Positions 3,186 through 64,000 of a DNA stretch of 64,000 bases are shown one piece after another. The stretch comes from Nitrospirota bacterium (lineage in GTDB: Bacteria; Nitrospirota; JACRHJ01). The DNA lies in contig CAVTDB010000017.1 of the NCBI GenBank assembly GCA_963733375.1, positions 1 to 64,000 of the forward strand. Direction: 5' to 3'. The position numbers and the translations under genes are program-made. A model generated the notes under the pieces. That model saw only the letters and a program-made list of their open reading frames with translations, ran no database searches and was not told the origin of the DNA. Within the stretch, counting starts at the first letter, position 1; each line of letters starts with the position of its first letter.

Positions 3186-5117
3186 ATGTCTTTAGAGAGA
3201 GAAAGCTGCACGTCTTCATTTTGTGAGGACCCGCAGATAATAGAGATGGATACCGATATACTGCTCATCGGCGGCGGCATGGCCTGCTGCGGTGCGGCAT
3301 TCGAGGTAATGCCCTGGGCCAAGAAGTACGGCCTGAAGGTGACCCTGGTCGACAAGGCGGCGATGGACCGCTCCGGCGCCGTCGCGCAGGGCCTTTCCGC
3401 CATCAACACCTACCTGGGCGACCAGGACCCCGCCGACTACGTCCGCATGGTCAAGAACGACCTCATGGGCATAGTCAGCGACGACCTTGATCTATGACGT
3501 GGGCCGCCACGTCGACGATTCCGTCCACCTCTTCGAGAAGTGGGGCCTGCCCATCTGGAAGCAGGCCGGCGACGAGGACAAGCCCCTGCGACAAGGGCGG
3601 CAAGCCCGTCCGCTCCGGCAAGTGGCAGATAATGATCAACGGCGAGTCCTACAAGGTCATCGTCGCCGAGGCCGCCAAGAAGGCCCTGGGCGAAGAGAAC
3701 ATCCTTGAGAGGGTGTTCATCGTCAAGCTGGTCCTCGACGAGAAGGAAGACAACAGGATCGCGGCTGCGGTTGGTTTCTCCACCCGCGAGAACAAGATCT
3801 ACGTACATCCGCGCCAACGCGATGCTGCTGGCCGCCGGCGGCGCCGTCAACATCTTCAGGCCGCGTTCCGTCGCGTGAAGGCATGGGCCGCGCGTGGTAT
3901 CCGGTATGGAACGCAGGCTCCACCTACACGATGGCCGCCCAGGTCGGCGCAGAGCTGACCATGATGGAAAACCGCTTCGTGCCCGCCCGCTTCAAGGACG
4001 GCTACGGCCCGGTCGGCGCATGGTTCCTTCTCTTCAAGGCGAAGGCCACCAACTCCATGGGCGAGAACTACATGATAAAGAACGCGGACATGCTGAAGGA
4101 CTATCCGCCTTACGGCCTGGCCGCGGTCCCCGCGACCTGCCTGCGCAACCACCTGATGCTGAAGGAGATGAAGGAAGGCCGCGGCCCGATATACATGGAC
4201 ACCGCCACCGCGATGAAAGAGCTGTCGGCGACGATGACGCCGAAGGAGGTCAAGCACCTCGAAGCCGAGGCGTGGGAAGACTTCCTCGACATGTGCGTCG
4301 GTCAGGCCGGCCTCTGGGCTGGCATGAACATCCAGCCGGAACTCGTCGGCTCCGAGCTTATGCCGACCGAGCCGTACATGCTCGGCTCTCACTCCGGCTG
4401 CTGCGGCATCTGGGTCTCCGGCCCGGATGACTTCGCTCCCGCCGAGTGGCAGTGGGGATATAACAGGATGACCACCGTCAAGGGCCTGTTCACCGCTGGC
4501 GACGGCGTCGGCGCCTCCGGCCACAAGTTCTCCTCCGGCTCACACGCCGAAGGGCGCATCGCGGCCAAGGCCATGGTCAAGTTCTGCCTGGACAACAAGG
4601 ACTTCAAGGCGACCGTATCCAAGACCGGCAAGGAGTTCGCGGCCGAGATACTAGAAGCCCGTTCAAGACCTTCGTGGAGCACAAGGACGACACCACGGAC
4701 GACTACATCAACCCGAACTACATCAGGCCGAAGATGCTCATGTACCGTCTGAACAAGATCATGGACGAGTACGTTGCCGGCACCTCGACCTACTACAACA
4801 CCTCGGCCGCGCTGATGAACAGGGCGCTCGAGCTCCTCACCTGGCTGAAGGAAGACGCCGAGAAGATGGCCGCCAAGGACCTGCACGAGCTGATGAGATG
4901 CTGGGAGAACTACCACCGGATATTCACCGCGGAAGCCCACCTCCGCCACATCATGTTCAGGGAAGAGACCCGCTACCCGGGCTTCTTCTACAGGACCGAC
5001 TTCCCGAAGCTGGACGAAGCGAACTGGAAGTGCTTCGTCAACTCCAAGATCAACCCGAAGACCGGCGAGTGGAAGTGCTTCAAGGTCGCTCACAAGGACC
5101 TCGTCCCGGCGAAGTAG
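3186..5117 (+). CDS. aprA: Adenylylsulfate reductase alpha subunit (several frameshifts, probably sequencing errors)
   Basis: FAD motif IGGGMACCG, RSGAVAQGLSAIN, WQIMINGESYK, GHKFSSGSHAEG, REETRYPG spread over ORFs 3186, 3494, 3883, 4674. Confidence 0.96.
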
Positions 5118-42178: not shown

Positions 42179-43251
42179 AGAGCAGCAGGAGCATGTCCTG
42201 GTCCGAGCTGAAGACCGGAATAGTCATAATAATAGCGTTCATCCTGCTTGCCGTAGGGATACTCCAGGTCGGCGGCAGGACCTCGTTCTTTACGAAACGT
42301 TATACGCTCTTCGTGCGCATGGAGAACTCCTACGGGCTGAAGGTCGGGAGCAACGTGCGGCTCGCGGGAATAGAGGTCGGGAACGTGGAGGACATCCTGC
42401 TCCCGTCAGACAAAAATGATAAGCAGATAATCATAAAGCTTAAGGTCCAGAAGAAATACATGGACAGGATACGCCAGGACTCCTTCGTCACCATACGCAC
42501 GATGGGGCTTTTGGGCGATAAGTACCTGGACATATCCGTGGGCAGTCCGCAGTACGCCGTCCTGCCGCCGGGTTCGACGCTCAACAATATCCAGGGGACC
42601 CAGCTTTCGTCGGTCATAGCCGGCGCGGCTTCGGGGCTTGAGAGCGTAAACGCGGTGCTGGGCCAGTTAAGGCATACGCTTGGGGACGTAAATAACGGCA
42701 AGGGCACATTCGGCTTGATGCTGAAGGACCCCAGGCTCTACGATCAGCTGGCAAACGCCTCGGAGAACCTCCAGAACCTGACCCAGGAACTGGGAAAAGG
42801 CAACGGGAGCCTGGGCAAACTGGTGAGGGATCCGGAGTTCTACAAAAACCTTGTCGAAGTATCGCAGAAGACGAAGGAACTGATGAACAAGCTTGATACC
42901 GGGAGCTTTGCCAGGCTCTCGGACGACAAGGCATTCTACGAGAACCTGCGCGACGTATCGGTAAATTTAAAGGATATTACCCAAAGCACGAAGGCGCTAG
43001 CGGATAACCTGAACAAGGGGAGCATCTCCCGCATCTCGTCGGACCCGGAGCTTTTTAACCGGGTGGAGCGGGTGTCAAGCAGGCTGGATTCCTTAATCGC
43101 CAAGGTCGAGAGCGGCCAGGGCAGCGCGGGCAAGCTGCTTACCGACGAGAAGCTCTACAACAACATGAACAAGTTCTTTACTGACGCGGACACGCTGGTT
43201 CTGGACTTCAAGGAACACCCGAAAAAATATATAAATTTGTCGATATTTTAG
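42175..43251 (+). CDS. mlaD: MlaD/MCE-domain protein with helical repeats
   Basis: GLKVGSNVRLAGIEVG, GLLGDKY, repeated G.G.LG.L..D..LY. Confidence 0.9.
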   Translation: MKSSRSMSWSELKTGIVIIIAFILLAVGILQVGGRTSFFTKRYTLFVRMENSYGLKVGSNVRLAGIEVGNVEDILLPSDKNDKQIIIKLKVQKKYMDRIRQDSFVTIRTMGLLGDKYLDISVGSPQYAVLPPGSTLNNIQGTQLSSVIAGAASGLESVNAVLGQLRHTLGDVNNGKGTFGLMLKDPRLYDQLANASENLQNLTQELGKGNGSLGKLVRDPEFYKNLVEVSQKTKELMNKLDTGSFARLSDDKAFYENLRDVSVNLKDITQSTKALADNLNKGSISRISSDPELFNRVERVSSRLDSLIAKVESGQGSAGKLLTDEKLYNNMNKFFTDADTLVLDFKEHPKKYINLSIF

Positions 43252-43291
43252 GAGGATTAATTATATTGATAATTCGATAAGAATAATTGTT

Positions 43292-43320
43292 TTGACTTAA
43301 TATAACTAAATAAATATATT
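43292..43320 (+). promoter_or_regulatory. Sigma70 promoter
   Basis: TTGACT-17 nt-TATATT. Confidence 0.65.
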
Positions 43321-43323
43321 TGA

Positions 43324-43429
43324 GACTGCAAGCGCAGTGCCCGATGTCAAAAGGACGGGGTGTGGGGCTTTGGCAGTTGAAGATTTATAAAGCCCGCCCC
43401 GAGGACCGAAATTGGGGCGGGTTTTTTTT
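43324..43429 (+). ncRNA. Candidate structured leader / attenuator or small RNA ending in an intrinsic terminator
   Basis: GC-rich hairpins in AT-rich context; terminator gcccgccccga..ttggggcgggtttttttt; cggggtgtggggcttt can pair with aaagcccgccccg. Confidence 0.45.
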
Positions 43430-43474
43430 ATCTTAAGTTATTTTTAACAGAGTAATTAAGAAACGGAGATAAAG

Positions 43475-44911
43475 ATGCGCTATAGAATTTTATTGTTTGC
43501 CTTAATGATATGGTTTGTTTTTTCATGTAATATTTCGTATGCTTTTTCGCCGCAGACGTACGGATCACAGGAAACGTCGAGTGCGGATGTACCGAAAACT
43601 GTAGCTGCTTATGGTAATAGTTATGTTAATTATACTGGTGCTGCACCTGCCCCTTTCAGTCCACCTAAGGCAACTGAAGATGATAAGATTTTGAAGCAAC
43701 TTCAATTTTCTTATTCCAAGGCGGTCCCGAGAGTTACAGTAAATGCATTAAGTTATTATATAAATCCAGCGGGAGACTTCACATTACCATTAAACATCTT
43801 TTCCTCTTATCAAGTTAAAAGCGTTGATAATCCCACCAACGTGGGAGACGCGTTACTCGATACATATGGTGGTGTGGTAAATGTGTCAATTGGTATTGAT
43901 GTTAGCAAATTGTTCAACATGACCGAGAATTTTAATAATCTGATTTATAAGATTTCGGGACGGGATCCGTCTATTGAAGAGCATGTAAAGCCCATATATG
44001 ATAAAAATGGCATTCGCACAAATTATAATTTACTTGGAGTGCCAATAAAGGACGAAAAAGGAAAAGCCATAGTTTATGCTAACCAGCAAGGCGACAAAGT
44101 GTTCGACGATACAGGTAAACCAATAATCTATTATAAATCGAAATACCTCATTCCAGATTATATATATAAAACGGGATACATTATTTTTGACGAAAAGGGG
44201 ACTCCAATCAAGGTTAAGGAGGCTCCACAAAAAGAAGGCGAGTATGCTGTTAAGCTTGCAAGAACCCTTTTTAATGAAAATGATAGTGAAGCTGACGCGG
44301 TGGCCAAACTCAAAACTGTAGGCGTCGATCTGAGCGGGGATGATTTGTCCTGCAAATTAACGACCGAAAAAGAGCAGGAAATAGACGACGGCGTAAAAAC
44401 CGCAGCCAAGGCCGGCAAGATCCCAGGAGTGGCCGTGGGCGAAGCACATAAAGCGCTCCTGGCAGCAAAAAATTATAAAGTTATCGATATAACTAAGGGA
44501 TTTTTCCTTTATATTGCTGGTGGAGGCAAGGCGATTAAGACATTAACCGAATCAGATATTGATACTCATCCTGCACATTCCGAAATTTCTGATAAATATT
44601 TTCCTGAATGGTACGGTGCCATTATGGCAAAGTTCATTTTTCCTATAACAAGTGATTCCAACGCTCTTAATAGAGCAGGCGAAGCGACTGTGGGAGCGAA
44701 TTTTGTATTTAATTATATAAATTCTCCTATATATAACGGCGAAAATGGAATATTTCCCAAAATTAAGACGAAATGGATAAGCTATGGCGACGTTTATGGA
44801 AGCATATATATAGATAACCAAATAAGTTTAGAAGGGGGCGCGACCCTTTACAACAATGTGAATAGTAGTATACAAAATATATACTATTTCAAAGTTGCAT
44901 ATGTACGATAG
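43475..44911 (+). CDS. AT-rich hypothetical secreted protein, possibly an outer-membrane protein (478 aa)
   Basis: Intact long ORF, RBS GGAG, signal peptide, DxxGxPI-like hairpin repeats, amphipathic C-terminal strands. Confidence 0.75.
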   Translation: MRYRILLFALMIWFVFSCNISYAFSPQTYGSQETSSADVPKTVAAYGNSYVNYTGAAPAPFSPPKATEDDKILKQLQFSYSKAVPRVTVNALSYYINPAGDFTLPLNIFSSYQVKSVDNPTNVGDALLDTYGGVVNVSIGIDVSKLFNMTENFNNLIYKISGRDPSIEEHVKPIYDKNGIRTNYNLLGVPIKDEKGKAIVYANQQGDKVFDDTGKPIIYYKSKYLIPDYIYKTGYIIFDEKGTPIKVKEAPQKEGEYAVKLARTLFNENDSEADAVAKLKTVGVDLSGDDLSCKLTTEKEQEIDDGVKTAAKAGKIPGVAVGEAHKALLAAKNYKVIDITKGFFLYIAGGGKAIKTLTESDIDTHPAHSEISDKYFPEWYGAIMAKFIFPITSDSNALNRAGEATVGANFVFNYINSPIYNGENGIFPKIKTKWISYGDVYGSIYIDNQISLEGGATLYNNVNSSIQNIYYFKVAYVR

Positions 44912-44925
44912 CAGCATGGGGATGG

Positions 44926-48689: not shown

Positions 48690-49401
48690 TTAGAAGCTTC
48701 TGTACTTGTTCGTTATCGGGAACCGTCTGTCTCGTCCCAGCGCGCGCGGGGTGATTTTTATTCCCGGCGGGGACTGGCGTCTCTTGTACTCGCTTATGTC
48801 AACTAACCGGATTACGCGCTTCACCGCTTCCGGGTCGAAGCCAAGCTGGACCATCTCCTCGAAACCCACGGTCCTCCTCGACGTATGCTTTAAGTATCGG
48901 GTCGAGTACCTCGTAAGGCGGCAGGGAGTCCGCATCCTTCTGGTCTGGGCGAAGCTCGGCGGACGGGGCCTTGGTTATCACGCGGGCGGGTATCAGCTCT
49001 TTTCCAGAGCGGCGGTTCACGTGGCGGCAGAGCTCGAATACCATGGTCTTGGGCACGTCCTTTATGACCGCGAAGCCTCCGGCCATGTCGCCGTAAAGCG
49101 TGGCGTAGCCCGTGGACATCTCGCTCTTGTTCCCGGTGGTCAGCACCAGCCAGCAGAACTTGTTCGATAGCGACATCAGCAGGTTGCCCCTTATCCTTGC
49201 CTGGAGGTTCTCTTCTGTCACGTCCGGCGCGTGTCCGGCGAACGCAGAGCTAAGCATCTTCTCCATGCTCTCGTAAGCCGGGGCGATAGGTATTTCTATG
49301 ACGGGGATGCCCAGGTTTGAAGCCAAGCGGTACGTGTCCTCGGCGCTCTCTTTGGAGGTATATCTGAAGGGGAAGAACGTCCCCTGGACGTTTTCGGCTC
49401 C
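48690..49401 (-). CDS. nadE: Glutamine-dependent NAD+ synthetase, 3' part (after the insertion)
   Basis: [50 protein letters not shown]. Confidence 0.93.
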
Positions 49402-50123
49402 AGCGTCACGCCCATCGGCTAAGCCCGGGACGGGCCAAACTCCTGGTGACGGCCCTCCGATCCTTTTTGCGTTACCTGCGGCATCGCGGAGAAATCTCGC
49501 TGGATCTGGCTGCCTGCGTGCCGATTGTACCCAATTGGTCGAAGTCCACATTGCCCAAGTTTCTCCCACCGGGAACGGTACAGCGCGTCGTGAATTGTTG
49601 TGATCGCCAGGCGCCTCTGGGCCGGCGGAATTACGCGATTTTACTGCTGCTCGCCAGGCTGGGCCTGCGGGCCGGAGAAGTTGTTGCGCTCAATCTGGAG
49701 GATATCGATTGGGAAGCCAGCCAGATGACCGTCCACGGTAAGGGTGGTCGATCAACACCAATGCCATTGCCTGCCGATGTCGGCGCGGCCATCGCCGCAT
49801 ACCTGCGTAACGGTCGGCCGCGTTGCTCCAGCCGCCGGGTTTTCATCCGCGCCAAGGCTCCGTTCGGTGGGTTTGCCAGTTCAGTGGCCATCTCTTTCAT
49901 CGTGATGAGGGCTCTCGAAAGAGCAGGCGTGGAGTCGGCGCGCAAAGGTGCGCATTTGTTTCGCCACACGCTGGCCTGCGACCTGCTTCGGGAAGGATGC
50001 TCCCTGGATGAAATTGGTGAACTGCTGCGGCACCAAAGTCCCGACACGACGGCGATCTACGCCAAGGTGGACCTTGTTGCATTGCATTCGCTGGCACTGC
50101 CGTGGCCGGGAGGGAGTCGATGA
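49402..50123 (+). CDS. Tyrosine recombinase, RitA-like (5'-truncated)
   Basis: GLRAGE, GKG, HLFRH, LRH, TTAIY; frame open from the junction with no native start. Confidence 0.88.
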
Positions 50124-51061
50124 GAGGTCTACGAAAAGGGATTTGCGACTACCTGATGTTGCGCCGTGGCCTTGGATTCAAACTGGTCAAACACGAAGCC
50201 GGACTGGAAGAGTTCGCATCCTTCCTGGATCGGAAACGCAGTACTCACATTACGAGCGAACTCGCGCTGGAGTGGGCAACTCTGCCTGCACATCACCAAC
50301 CTTGCCAGTGGACTGCGCGGCTGACCATCGTGCGAGGCTTCGCCCGATACTGGAGCGCCGTAGATCCGTCGACGGAAGTTCCGCCTTTGGGCTTGTTGCC
50401 ATACCGACCGACCCGCGCTCGGCCGTACTTCTATTCAGATCAGGAAATCCAGCAACTGCTGAAGGCTGCCAAGGCTCGGCCTTCCTGTGACCCGCTGCGG
50501 CCCTGGACCTATCACTGCTTCTTTGGATTGTTAGCGGTCACAGGCCTCCGGCTCAGTGAAGCGGTGAATCTCCATGCCGAGGATTTGGACTGGTCCGAAG
50601 GCATCCTCACCATTCGGGGAGCCAAGTTCGGCAAATCCCGTCTGGTACCGCTGCATGCCTCGACCTGTAAGGTCCTGGCCGATTACGCAAAACGGCGGGA
50701 CCGTCGCTTTGGCCCGCGAGCAGAGGCGCACTTCTTCGTGAATAAGAATGGCAACCGACTGGACAAAGGCGAGGTCCACCGGATGTTCTACATCCTGTCT
50801 CGACAGATTGGATTGCGTGCTGCGGGGGGTGGTCGCGGCCCGCGCCTGCACGATTTTCGTCACCGATTTGCCCTCGAGACTCTGTTGCGCTGGTATCGCA
50901 ACGGCGAAGATCCCCAGCGGCGCTTGCCGATCTTGTCTACCTACCTCGGGCACGCACACGTCACCGACACCTATTGGTATTTGACGGGCACACCGGAACT
51001 ATTGGGAGCTGCCGGGAAGCGGCTGGAAAAGAGATGGGAGGGCCTCAATGCTGGACGCTAA
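50120..51061 (+). CDS. Tyrosine recombinase, RitB-like (complete)
   Basis: TGLRLSE, AKFGKSRLVPLH, PRLHDFRH, LSTYLGH, TYWYL; ATGA overlap with ritA. Confidence 0.92.
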   Translation: MRGLRKGICDYLMLRRGLGFKLVKHEAGLEEFASFLDRKRSTHITSELALEWATLPAHHQPCQWTARLTIVRGFARYWSAVDPSTEVPPLGLLPYRPTRARPYFYSDQEIQQLLKAAKARPSCDPLRPWTYHCFFGLLAVTGLRLSEAVNLHAEDLDWSEGILTIRGAKFGKSRLVPLHASTCKVLADYAKRRDRRFGPRAEAHFFVNKNGNRLDKGEVHRMFYILSRQIGLRAAGGGRGPRLHDFRHRFALETLLRWYRNGEDPQRRLPILSTYLGHAHVTDTYWYLTGTPELLGAAGKRLEKRWEGLNAGR

Positions 51062-51915
51062 TTTCCCGGCCCTGTTGCAGTCCTTCTTTACTACTCGCCT
51101 CATGGCCCAGCGGAAGGTCAGTTCCCATACGATCGCCTCCTACCGGGACACGTTTCGCCTGCTGCTGCAGTTCGCACAGAAGCGGCTACGCAAGGCACCG
51201 TCCCAGTTGGAACTGGATAACCTGGACGCATCTTTCATCGGAGCGTTTCTGGATGACCTGGAGGCCAGTCGCGGCAACGCCGCTCGCAGCCGGAACCTGC
51301 GTCTGACTGCGGTTCGGTCCTTTTTCCGCTACGCGGCACTGGAAGCGCCGGTGCACGCGGGGACCATTCAACGTGTGCTGGCGATCCCCAACCAGCGACA
51401 ATCCCGTGCCTTGGTGGATTTTCTAACCCGGCCGGAAATCGATGCCTTGCTGGCAGCGCCGAATCCGGCGACTTGGTTGGGACGTCGCGATCACGCTTTC
51501 CTCCTTACCGCCGTGCAAACCGGACTGCGACTCTCCGAGATGACGTCCCTGCGTCACGAAGACATTTCACTGGGCACTGGCGCGCATGTTCATTGCCGCG
51601 GGAAAGGGCGCAAGGAACGCTGTACTCCTCTGACCAAGCCCACTGTATCGGTACTCAAGGCCTGGATGCGGGAACAAGGCAGAGCAGATTCCAAGACTCT
51701 TTTCCCCAGTGTGCGCGGCGGACGCTTGAGCGCCGTCGGTGTCCAGCACATGGTCGCACGGCACGTGGCCAAGGCACGAAAAACCTGCCCTACGTTGGGC
51801 AAGAAACGTGTCTCACCTCACGTGCTTCGCCACGCCGCGGCGATGGAACTTTTGCAATCGGGCGTGGATCGCGCGGTGATCGCGCTCTGGCTCGGACACG
51901 AATCGGTCGAAACCC
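51048..51915 (+). CDS. Tyrosine recombinase, RitC-like (3'-truncated before the catalytic Tyr)
   Basis: SYRDTFRLLL, TGLRLSE, GKGRKER, SPHVLRH, WLGHESVET then junction. Confidence 0.9.
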
Positions 51916-52935
51916 CACGGCTTCCACCGCGACGGCGGCTACAAGGGAGCTGTCTATCCCGCCGGAGAGCGAGACGACTACTTTGCCGAAACCGTTCTTC
52001 CTGACGTAGTCGCGCGTCCCCAGCACAAGCGCCTGGAAGACCTCCTCCATCGGCTCGAACGGCTCGTTCAGCTCCGGCGGCCTCATCTTCTGCCTTTCCG
52101 GCCTTGGCAGCGCGGGCACGAAGACGGACCGATGGCCCTCGTCCTTGTGCAGGTATCGCTCGACCCTGCTTCTGGGGTCTATCAGCCGGGCATGGAAGAC
52201 CGATTCGAGGTCCAGGTCCACCACGACGAGCGCCTCCTTGAACTGCGGCCCCTGGGCGATAAGCTTCCCCTGCTCGTTCATTATCATGCCATGCCCGTCG
52301 AATACCAGCTCGTCCTGGCCGCCGACCATGTTGTTATACGCCACGATCGCCACGTTGTCCGCCGCGCGCGCGGTGAGCATATGCCGTCTGAACTTCCACT
52401 TCCCCTTGTAGTACGGGGAGGCGTTGATGTTTATTATAACCTCCGCGCCGGATAACGCCTGGCTCCGGAGCGGCCCGTCCGGCAGCCAGATGTCTTCACA
52501 GACGTTCACGCCGATTTTGACCCCGTTAAGGTCGTAAACGGGGTAGCCTTTACCGGCCTGGAAGTATCTGTACTCGTCGAAAACGCCGTAGTTCGGGAGG
52601 AAGGTCTTGTGGTAGACGTCGATTAATTTACCGTCGGAGATGAAGGCGGCGGCGTTATAGATGTCTTCGGTCCTGTCCACGAAACCGACGACGGCGGCGA
52701 TGCCTTTGGCTTCCGATACCACCTCGTTTAAGACGGCGAGGTTGGCGTCGATAAACGAAGGCTTTAAAAGCAGGTCCTCCGGCGGATAACCGGTCACGGC
52801 AAGCTCCGGGAACGCCACGACGTCAGCGCCTTCCTCCTTCGCGCGGCCGATATAGGAGGTGATCTTCTTCAGGTTCCCTTCAAGGTCGCCGACGGTGCAG
52901 TTTATCTGCGCCATCGCCAGTCTCAAGCTTCTCAA
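51916..52935 (-). CDS. nadE: Glutamine-dependent NAD+ synthetase, 5' part
   Basis: Nitrilase triad FPEL / KTFLPNY / VCEDIW; SGGIDS ATP-binding loop. Confidence 0.95.
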
Positions 52936-63084: not shown

Positions 63085-63091
63085 CGGTACT

Positions 63092-64000
63092 ATGAAAATC
63101 CTGGTATCGGTCCTTGGCAACATCAGGACCATCCCGATGAACCTCTACGTCCCCCGGACTCTGGAAGCGATGGGCCACGAGGTTTGTGTTTTCGACTCCG
63201 GCATCCATGGAATCATCCCGGGGCTCCTGAAAAAATTCTCGTCCCGCCGGAATTTAATCCAGTTCATGGACAAAAAGACGCTGGGGACGGTAGAGAGATA
63301 CAAGCCGGACCTGTTCCTTGCCATATACGGAGTAAACCACAGCGTAGAACTGATAGACAAGGTGAAGGCGATGGGCATCCCCGCCGTCTGCTGGTGGCTT
63401 AACGACCCGTTCCAGTTCGAGCGCTCGACCGAGAGGGCGGCCAAGTTCGATTTCTATTTTACCAACTCCAGCGGGATACTGGGCGAGTACTATAAAAGGG
63501 GGATAAAGAACGCGCACTACCTTCCGGTGGGCGTTTATCCGCCGGTCGCACAGGAGGCTCCCTGGCCTTGAAAAAAAGTACGACGTAAGCTTTTCCGGGG
63601 ACTGGTGCGTGCCCAGGGAAAAGGTGCTTGGCCCGGTGGCGGAAGATTTCGGCCTGTCGATTTTCGGGCCGTGGAAGAAGAAGCTAAAAAAAAGCTCCGC
63701 TCTCAGGAAAAGTATCGTCAAAAACGGTTTTTTCACGACCGAAGAGATGGTCGGGATATTCAACCGCTCGAAGGTAGTCCTGAACGTGCACAGCTGGCTG
63801 GAAAAATTCGAGTTACGGAGTAAACCCCCGCCTGTTCGAGGCTAACGGCTGCGGCGCATTTCAGATATGCGACTGGAAGCAGGAGATACCGAAGCTGTAC
63901 GAGGAGGACAAGGAAATAATCCTGTACCGGACTGTCGCGGAACTGAAGGAAAAGCTCGCCTATTACCTGCCAAGGGAGAAAGAAAGGATAAAGATAGCCG
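63092..64000 (+). CDS. CgeB-like glycosyltransferase (frameshifted, runs off the window)
   Basis: KPDL, WWLNDP, YDVSFSG, SKVVLN, RLFE..GCGAFQ. Confidence 0.75.

Follow-up and report, generated by a model that had tools for sequence, protein, structure and literature searches.

The nadE locus and its insert

The window analysed in this study is the first 64 kb of contig C17 (70,659 bases), which belongs to assembly G000 (2.39 Mb, 26 contigs). The host phylum appears to be Nitrospirota, judging from the taxa recorded for a neighbouring peptidase. On the minus strand of the window lies nadE, the glutamine-dependent nicotinamide adenine dinucleotide (NAD) synthetase gene, and it is split by a 2514-bp piece of a recombinase-in-trio (RIT) element. 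The assembly is 81% complete with 5% contamination, so that gene absences in it are soft. The insert is present as a single copy in the assembly. The exact 313-aa RitB that it encodes is on record in NCBI and ENA for one contig of 70,659 bases, which means that the insert belongs to the public assembly. G002, a genome of the same genus, was used for comparison; the whole-genome alignment of G000 with G002 spans 1,993,458 of 2,394,442 bases. The features of the locus are as follows.

48690..49400, minus strand: C-terminal part of nadE, with the NAD synthase domain from profile position 43; open reading frames (ORFs) 48799..49569 and 48690..48935
49400..49401: left joint, host ...GGCTC followed by insert CAGCGTCAC...; the G002 alignment ends at 49401
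49401..51914, plus strand: internal fragment of a RIT element, 2514 bp, with neither element end; based on homology to RIT copies and on soil and peat contigs
49404..50123, plus strand: ritA', 5'-truncated, 239 codons and a stop; frame 2 of the insert, Phage_integrase 7e-25
50102..51061, plus strand: ritB, complete ORF, 319 aa with the GTG start and 313 aa with the ATG at 50120; Phage_integrase 6.1e-21
51048..51914, plus strand: ritC', truncated at the 3' end after 289 codons (last residues ...LGHESVET), just short of the T-Q-I-Y stretch with the catalytic tyrosine
51914..51915: right joint, insert ...GTCGAAACC followed by host CCACGGCTT... (CCACGG...); the G002 alignment starts at 51914
51915..52935, minus strand: N-terminal part of nadE, with the CN-hydrolase (glutaminase) domain and the first ~42 NAD synthase positions including SGGIDS

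The N-terminal part of nadE is read in an ORF (51790..52935) that runs about 40 codons into the insert and stops at 51790. It matches CN_hydrolase (2.5e-42) and positions 2-43 of the NAD_synthase profile, and its identity to G002 is 98%. The C-terminal part matches profile positions 43-208 (6.5e-49), and a 1-base frameshift near 48867 (an extra C relative to G002) separates its last ~80 codons. At the break, the peptide of the N part ends with ...AVAVEAV-G and the C part restarts with AENVQG. At this locus, no single frame combines a CN-hydrolase domain with a complete NAD_synthase (PP-loop) domain after it, as the gene is split at profile position 43 and frameshifted; this domain pair is intact in G002, G003, G006, and G008. 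When the 2514 bp were deleted in silico, one continuous nadE frame (...AVAVEAVGAENVQG...) was obtained, which confirms what a first-pass annotation of this DNA had claimed, and the Pfam NAD_synthase profile was whole again. The flanks without the insert (301+301 nt) aligned end to end in the loci of 6 of 6 relatives (1 of the same genus and 5 of the same family), which are uninterrupted. In G002, the two flank matches abut at C4:224645/224646 with 96-98% identity. Thirty relatives were searched with a query of insert plus flanks, and the insert part had no match in any of them. The ratio of synonymous to non-synonymous differences between G000 and G002 was 19:2 for the N part and 17:7 for the C part. 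nadE thus shows purifying selection relative to the sister species, and the synonymous excess indicates that the disruption is recent.

Two further observations concern nadE and NAD metabolism. In another genome of the same genus, G001 (97% complete, 140 contigs), the 2344-base contig C103 (L003:1-980) begins inside nadE, 69 bp from the insertion site, and no part of that assembly contained the synthetase half of the gene. An ordinary break in the assembly is the probable cause, although it falls at the same locus. G000 also has a nicotinamidase-like gene of the isochorismatase family (465 bp, 61.5% GC; L237:924-1478, G000:C13:29679-30143), which is specific to G000 and not present in G002. 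It sits directly upstream of a QRPTase-family gene; it concerns NAD salvage and does not bypass NadE.

The insert contains three adjacent and overlapping tyrosine recombinase genes in the order ritA-ritB-ritC, colinear with full RIT copies. ritA and ritB overlap at 50102-50123 (4 bp counted from the ATG at 50120), and ritB and ritC overlap at 51048-51061. The first-pass annotation was right that the insert starts in the middle of ritA and stops in ritC before the catalytic tyrosine. ritA' corresponds to about residues 173-412 of the 412-aa RitA encoded by L010, the closest full copy (RitA at L010 1113..2351), and the Phage_integrase match of ritC' stops at profile position 161 of 172. Three complete proteins with the R..H-x-x-R..Y set are not encoded, since ritC lacks the Tyr and ritA retains 240 of ~412 residues. 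On the left, about 0.64 kb is missing, including the inverted repeat and ~172 ritA codons; on the right, about 0.25 kb is missing, including the end of ritC and the inverted repeat. The claimed lack of terminal inverted repeats was also correct: allowing up to 3 mismatches, the window contains no copy (0 matches) of the 34-nt inverted repeat of L010, and the insert is not flanked by any direct or inverted repeat. The insert is free of frameshifts. Judged from its gene content and ends, it is a dead fragment of a RIT and not a RIT element.

The host homology, as defined by G002, reaches 49400/49401 and restarts at 51914/51915. The simplest parse would be host up to 49400, insert from 49401 to 51914, and host again from 51915, with a 1-2-base C ambiguity. 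The length given by the first-pass annotation is therefore retained, and its position moves one base to the left. Both joints are blunt and fall on one and the same bond of the host; target duplication, loss, filler, and adapter are all absent, and at most 1-2 bases are shared. This agrees with the earlier description of no target deletion, no clear duplication, and a short CC/CCA overlap. No homology, no duplication, and little or no loss is the pattern of joints left by end-joining capture. No k-mer was shared between the joints and the host. For the three ORFs that span the junctions, an exact protein look-up found none in the collection, which other start codons may explain.

Full-length relatives and probable donor type of the insert

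The full RIT element is about 3.4 kb in length. Inverted repeats of 32-43 nt lie about 3.34 kb apart in all four full copies checked (L010, L017, L019, and L026), in line with the earlier statement that intact RIT elements carry terminal inverted repeats. In L010, perfect 34-nt inverted repeats (996-1029 and 4376-4409) enclose the genes for a 412-aa RitA, a 319-aa RitB, and RitC. L010 matches the whole insert at 94.2% DNA identity. L009 and L094 match the insert at 96% in two pieces, and full copies in metagenome-assembled genomes (MAGs) of Acidobacteriota match it at 94-97%. In nearly all relatives, the edges of the match fall at 49401-49404 and 51913-51914, while their own loci continue.

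At the protein level, 7989 of 8000 scored candidates were relatives of RitB, the best with 96% identity, and a RitB relative was encoded in 220 of 250 candidate stretches from species-representative genomes. Among the first-listed 31 loci (75-97% amino-acid identity), 29 are Acidobacteriota by name (Solibacteraceae, Bryobacterales, Terriglobia, and others), and the remaining two are one Gemmatimonadetes MAG and one Methylococcaceae MAG. More distant trios (63-65% at the nucleotide level) occur in 237 plasmid records with annotated integrases, including those of the classic RIT carriers, such as Aromatoleum EbN1 and S. fredii NGR234. The closest named carriers are Acidobacteriota, and the donor type would be a RIT like those of soil Acidobacteriota.

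The RIT relatives themselves showed several features. The L010 element is placed inside the HRFRH codons of another tyrosine recombinase gene (L010:988-1029, 4376-4460), and the interrupted recombinase frame resumes (HTFASEM...LMGHAQIQTT.VY) past the right repeat and a short palindrome. The ritC of L010 has a 13-bp insertion relative to the copy in the window. The RIT copy of a Solibacteraceae MAG (96%; L094:1501-2173 and L090; G031:C11:151767-152439, 156233-158081) is split by about 3.8 kb between its ritA part and the rest.

The codon usage of the insert differed from that of the host. None of its 26 Ile codons is ATA, as had been noticed earlier, versus 44% in 528 long host frames, and AGG makes up 2% of its Arg codons versus 25% in the host. 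The tetranucleotide distance of the insert from the genome mean was larger than that of 92.8% of 4672 windows (7.2% were as far or farther). The insert is thus mildly atypical in tetranucleotides and not an outlier, and codon usage is the sharper test. By codon usage, the insert is foreign and not ameliorated.

Public runs containing the stretch were soil, peat, and permafrost metagenomes (20 rows, 17 studies). The search was ranked by insert words, and the insert made up 72% of the query. In four runs (X1-X4), short-read contigs cover 49401-51914 with at least 99% identity. The pieces from run X1 (558, 253, 705, 350, and 754 bases) had 1, 1, 4, 3, and 1 differing letters, respectively, and no gaps. 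The contigs of X1, X2, and X4 continue at 51914 with ACCCAGATCTATTTGGAC..., which encodes TQIYLD, the stretch with the missing catalytic tyrosine, and before 49401 these contigs continue with sequence unlike the window. On the host flanks, the contigs of X1-X4 matched only in short conserved patches whose ends were loose on either side, indicating that the host is not in those runs. Near-identical full-length copies, of the kind that the first-pass annotation had proposed to look for, thus live in soils where the host is not detectable. The flanks may be present in runs X18-X20 (shares 0.20-0.30). One X4 contig has a joint 49102->52004, which was rejected as an empty site because its shorter side has 27 letters with 90% likeness.

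Consensus quality and other insertions in the assembly

The flanks of the insert showed 329 indel events against G002 in 56,882 aligned bases (5.8 per kb), of which 308 were not multiples of three. For these 308 events, the frame was open in G002 in 119 cases and in G000 in 46 cases, and 143 cases were undecided. The insert had 0 gaps against the short-read contigs and against L009, L094, and L013. An intact insert between frameshifted flanks was also what the first-pass annotation had reported. Among 727 host windows of the size of the insert, 2.75% had no indel other than multiples of three against G002. The clean consensus of the insert is therefore suggestive and not decisive.

Compared with G002, G000 has 36 tight specific insertions of at least 200 bp, the RIT piece included. 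According to their ORFs and Pfam matches, the other 35 are whole-gene cassettes at gene boundaries, repeat-domain expansions (PAS, HEAT), and small AT-rich pieces. The cassettes include restriction-modification, toxin-antitoxin, cydAB, histidine kinase, methyltransferases (the host has its own, for example at C18:23822-26122 and C26:363939-367218), and a four-gene cassette, and one of the 35 insertions contains a partial acyltransferase.

Two other properties of the assembly were observed. At L240:2793-3878 (G000:C26:~166390-167475), outside the window, the plus strand contains no T for about 1.08 kb and is built of A, C, and G (non-repetitive; six frames open). This stretch makes up the right part of a 2878-bp insertion, up to its end, that is not in G002, and all 9 base-depleted 300-nt windows of the genome are located there. 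Its appearance is that of an artefact of a read or of basecalling that the assembler retained; a natural strand-asymmetric sequence is the alternative. G000 is also redundant in places: C14 versus C6:34171-44838, and C19 versus C2:1-8156, the end of C18, and the start of C20 share stretches of G002. The redundant contigs are strain versions of some regions, which agrees with the contamination figure of 5%.

Origin of the insertion

The reading that we favour, tentatively, is a capture of foreign DNA in the cell by a process of the non-homologous end joining (NHEJ) type, both recent and rare. It fits the anatomy of the insertion best, and it is an alternative that the first-pass annotation did not contain. 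The direct observations are the structure of the insertion, its foreign origin, the uninterrupted site in the relatives, and the genes for Ku and LigD in the host. They could be connected in the following way. A dead RIT fragment of 2514 bp would have been sheared from an element of the soil Acidobacteriota type and ligated blunt to blunt into a double-strand break in the only nadE of the host. The recombinases of the fragment would not have been involved, because it has neither element end. A living cell would be the most natural place in which both ends of a break are kept together while a stray fragment is ligated. Because nadE is single-copy and under purifying selection and no bypass of NadE was found, the allele would be very recent and probably present on few chromosomes, perhaps on one sequenced molecule. 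The low-depth, error-prone assembly would then have adopted it into the consensus.

The host encodes both NHEJ proteins: Ku (152 bits) is found on C20 beside LigD_N (152 bits), DNA_ligase_A_M (83 bits), and LigD_Prim-Pol (312 bits). Given Ku and LigD, and because a cell would most naturally keep the two break ends together, we read the event as NHEJ-type capture. The locus may quite possibly be a natural Ku/LigD footprint, in which naked DNA passed across phyla (from Acidobacteriota to Nitrospirota) in soil or peat and was caught by single-molecule sequencing before selection removed the allele. As for the genes themselves, the LigD gene (L096:772-3373, G000:C20; phosphoesterase, ligase, and Prim-Pol) is split over three frames, like many host genes, and Ku lies just upstream of it, next to a hemerythrin gene.

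Several observations weigh against a capture in the cell. nadE is the sole full NAD synthase in the 81%-complete assembly, where the proposed search for a second nadE found none, and 4 of 5 relatives have exactly one nadE each. A search of G000 for genes of the NAPRTase/NadV family or for PnuC found none at this completeness. With a single nadE and no bypass found, a cell with the split allele should be non-viable. This would argue against a frequent allele, and the sampling of a rare allele would then be unlikely. The joints were seen in no read or contig outside the assembly, neither in X1-X4, which lack the host, nor in the metagenome contigs of JGI, where a weak search with the junction 32-mers gave 0 and 0 exact matches. 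No doubly truncated multi-gene fragment of foreign composition was found among the other 35 insertions, so capture is not a habit of this lineage and the RIT scrap is a one-off. In addition, the assembly retains another technical-looking oddity, the T-free stretch.

A technical chimera, that is, one aberrant host/RIT/host molecule or read from library preparation or sequencing, is a substantial possibility, somewhat short of an even chance. The RIT piece would come from a co-extracted acidobacterium, the aberrant molecule would have served as assembly backbone at low depth, and the insert would be polished by the many RIT reads of the sample; such abundant reads would polish the insert under capture as well as under a chimera. 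A noisy, long-read-like assembly around a gap-free insert fits this explanation, and so does the abundance of the donor type in soil and peat. The size of the fragment and its random ends resemble a sheared library molecule, and a location in an essential single-copy gene is expected of a random artefact and forbidden by selection. The T-free stretch and the redundant strain contigs were also kept, which indicates that single-read oddities survive in this assembly. However, both joints lie at one host bond and nothing was lost. Reads that arise by random ligation or as pore chimeras joined back to back consist of two parts and usually contain adapter, and nothing would lead them back to the adjacent host base. 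The assembler had neither a shared k-mer nor an overlap at which to mis-join, and the clean consensus proves little in view of the equally indel-free host windows. To our knowledge, neither library preparation nor assembly includes a step that would place foreign DNA seamlessly at a single bond. An ordinary mis-assembly at a repeat or k-mer was ruled out, as the joints share 1-2 bases and contain no adapter or filler. Without a mis-join sequence, a physical molecule or a single read that runs from host to RIT to host and returns to the next host base is required. The first-pass annotation had proposed a chimera or mis-assembly with DNA from another genome; the foreign origin stood, the ordinary mis-assembly did not, and a chimeric molecule or read is possible. 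Another illegitimate route in the cell, by template switching to foreign DNA and back or by topoisomerase-mediated strand exchange, would leave the same anatomy as end joining (no homology, no duplication). Nevertheless, template switching usually needs microhomology of several bases, at most 1-2 being shared here, and it rarely returns to the very next base; we consider this route very improbable.

The split nadE might also be a fixed and tolerated pseudogene, in a population that obtains NAD or its precursors from neighbours, or that keeps a second nadE in the 19% of the genome that was not assembled. The contig has the split allele only, and the absences noted above are soft. Against this, no salvage route that bypasses NadE was found, 4 of 5 relatives have one nadE each, and the synonymous excess against G002 shows selection until very recently, which makes a fixed pseudogene improbable. 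The other proposal of the first-pass annotation, a non-canonical RIT insertion that is precisely excised by its own recombinases and acts as a switch on nadE, was not supported, and we regard it as extremely improbable. Exact removal does restore the frame, and ritB is intact. However, both inverted repeats, present in the four full copies checked, are missing, ritC lacks the Tyr region, and ritA lacks its first ~172 codons. No repeat brackets the insert, which leaves the intact RitB without a site to act on, no relative carries the insert, and the canonical target in L010 is the HxxR box of a recombinase and not nadE. RIT transposition was ruled out, because both element ends are gone, only one of the three recombinases is complete, and the family uses another target.

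Comparison with known systems and meaning

Elements that interrupt a gene and are excised during development are well known, such as skin in sigK of Bacillus and the nifD element of Anabaena, as are the "regulatory switches" formed by phages. The present insert resembles skin and the nifD element in that its exact removal restores the gene. Those elements carry a complete recombinase and attachment sites at both ends, whereas the RIT scrap has neither, so that the locus lacks the parts of an excisable element. The usual chimeras of long-read metagenomes are two-part joins or joins at repeats. The likeness to them is foreign DNA of an abundant co-occurring taxon in a low-depth, indel-rich MAG contig; the RIT scrap differs in that it lies seamlessly within host sequence, and its two joints fall on a single bond.

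RIT elements with the genes ritA-ritB-ritC are described for Cupriavidus metallidurans CH34, pHG1, and pNGR234a by Van Houdt et al. (2012, Mob DNA 3:6, PMC3414803). The insert likewise has three adjacent overlapping tyrosine recombinase genes in the order A-B-C. It differs in that it is the internal 2514 bp of ~3.4 kb, has no inverted repeats, has truncated ritA and ritC, and sits in nadE.

For NHEJ, Dupuy, Sauviac and Bruand (2019, NAR 47:1335, PMC6379672) showed that Ku and LigD of Sinorhizobium meliloti capture heterologous DNA at a chromosomal break. Eukaryotic parallels, in which mitochondrial or Ty DNA patches breaks, appear among the titles of its reference list. As in the S. meliloti experiments reported there, unrelated DNA lies here between the ends of one break, without homology or duplication, in a host with Ku and LigD. 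In that work the break was an I-SceI break and the DNA was electroporated, whereas here the target is an essential gene and the event may have occurred naturally in a cell. The process has so far been shown only with engineered breaks (PMC6379672). If the joining did occur in a cell, this locus would belong to a very small number of natural cases in which bacterial end joining took up foreign DNA without homology. It would then show directly, from the field, that NHEJ imports foreign DNA with neither homology nor the machinery of mobile elements.

The genome represents its species in a reference collection. Because of the scrap, automated pipelines would annotate it as an NAD auxotroph and would count an "integrase trio" as transferred between phyla. 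Both calls are unsafe and should be treated with caution.

Other insertions of interest

A 975-bp single-copy insertion with 35% GC lies in the cytochrome b gene between the Cytochrome_B (N) and Cytochrom_B_C parts (L232:1001-1975, G000:C2:86733-87707). The corresponding site in G002 is uninterrupted and forms one open frame, and no Pfam family was found in the 975-bp insert. The window itself contains two more G000-specific stretches with tight junctions. One is located at 63091-64000 (to C17:64013), downstream of a purD-like frame; it is 923 bp long (G002 gap -2) and apparently consists of one gene broken by frameshifts. The other, at 43251-44925, is a 1675-bp insertion with 38.5% GC that is not in G002 and carries one 483-aa open frame between host genes.

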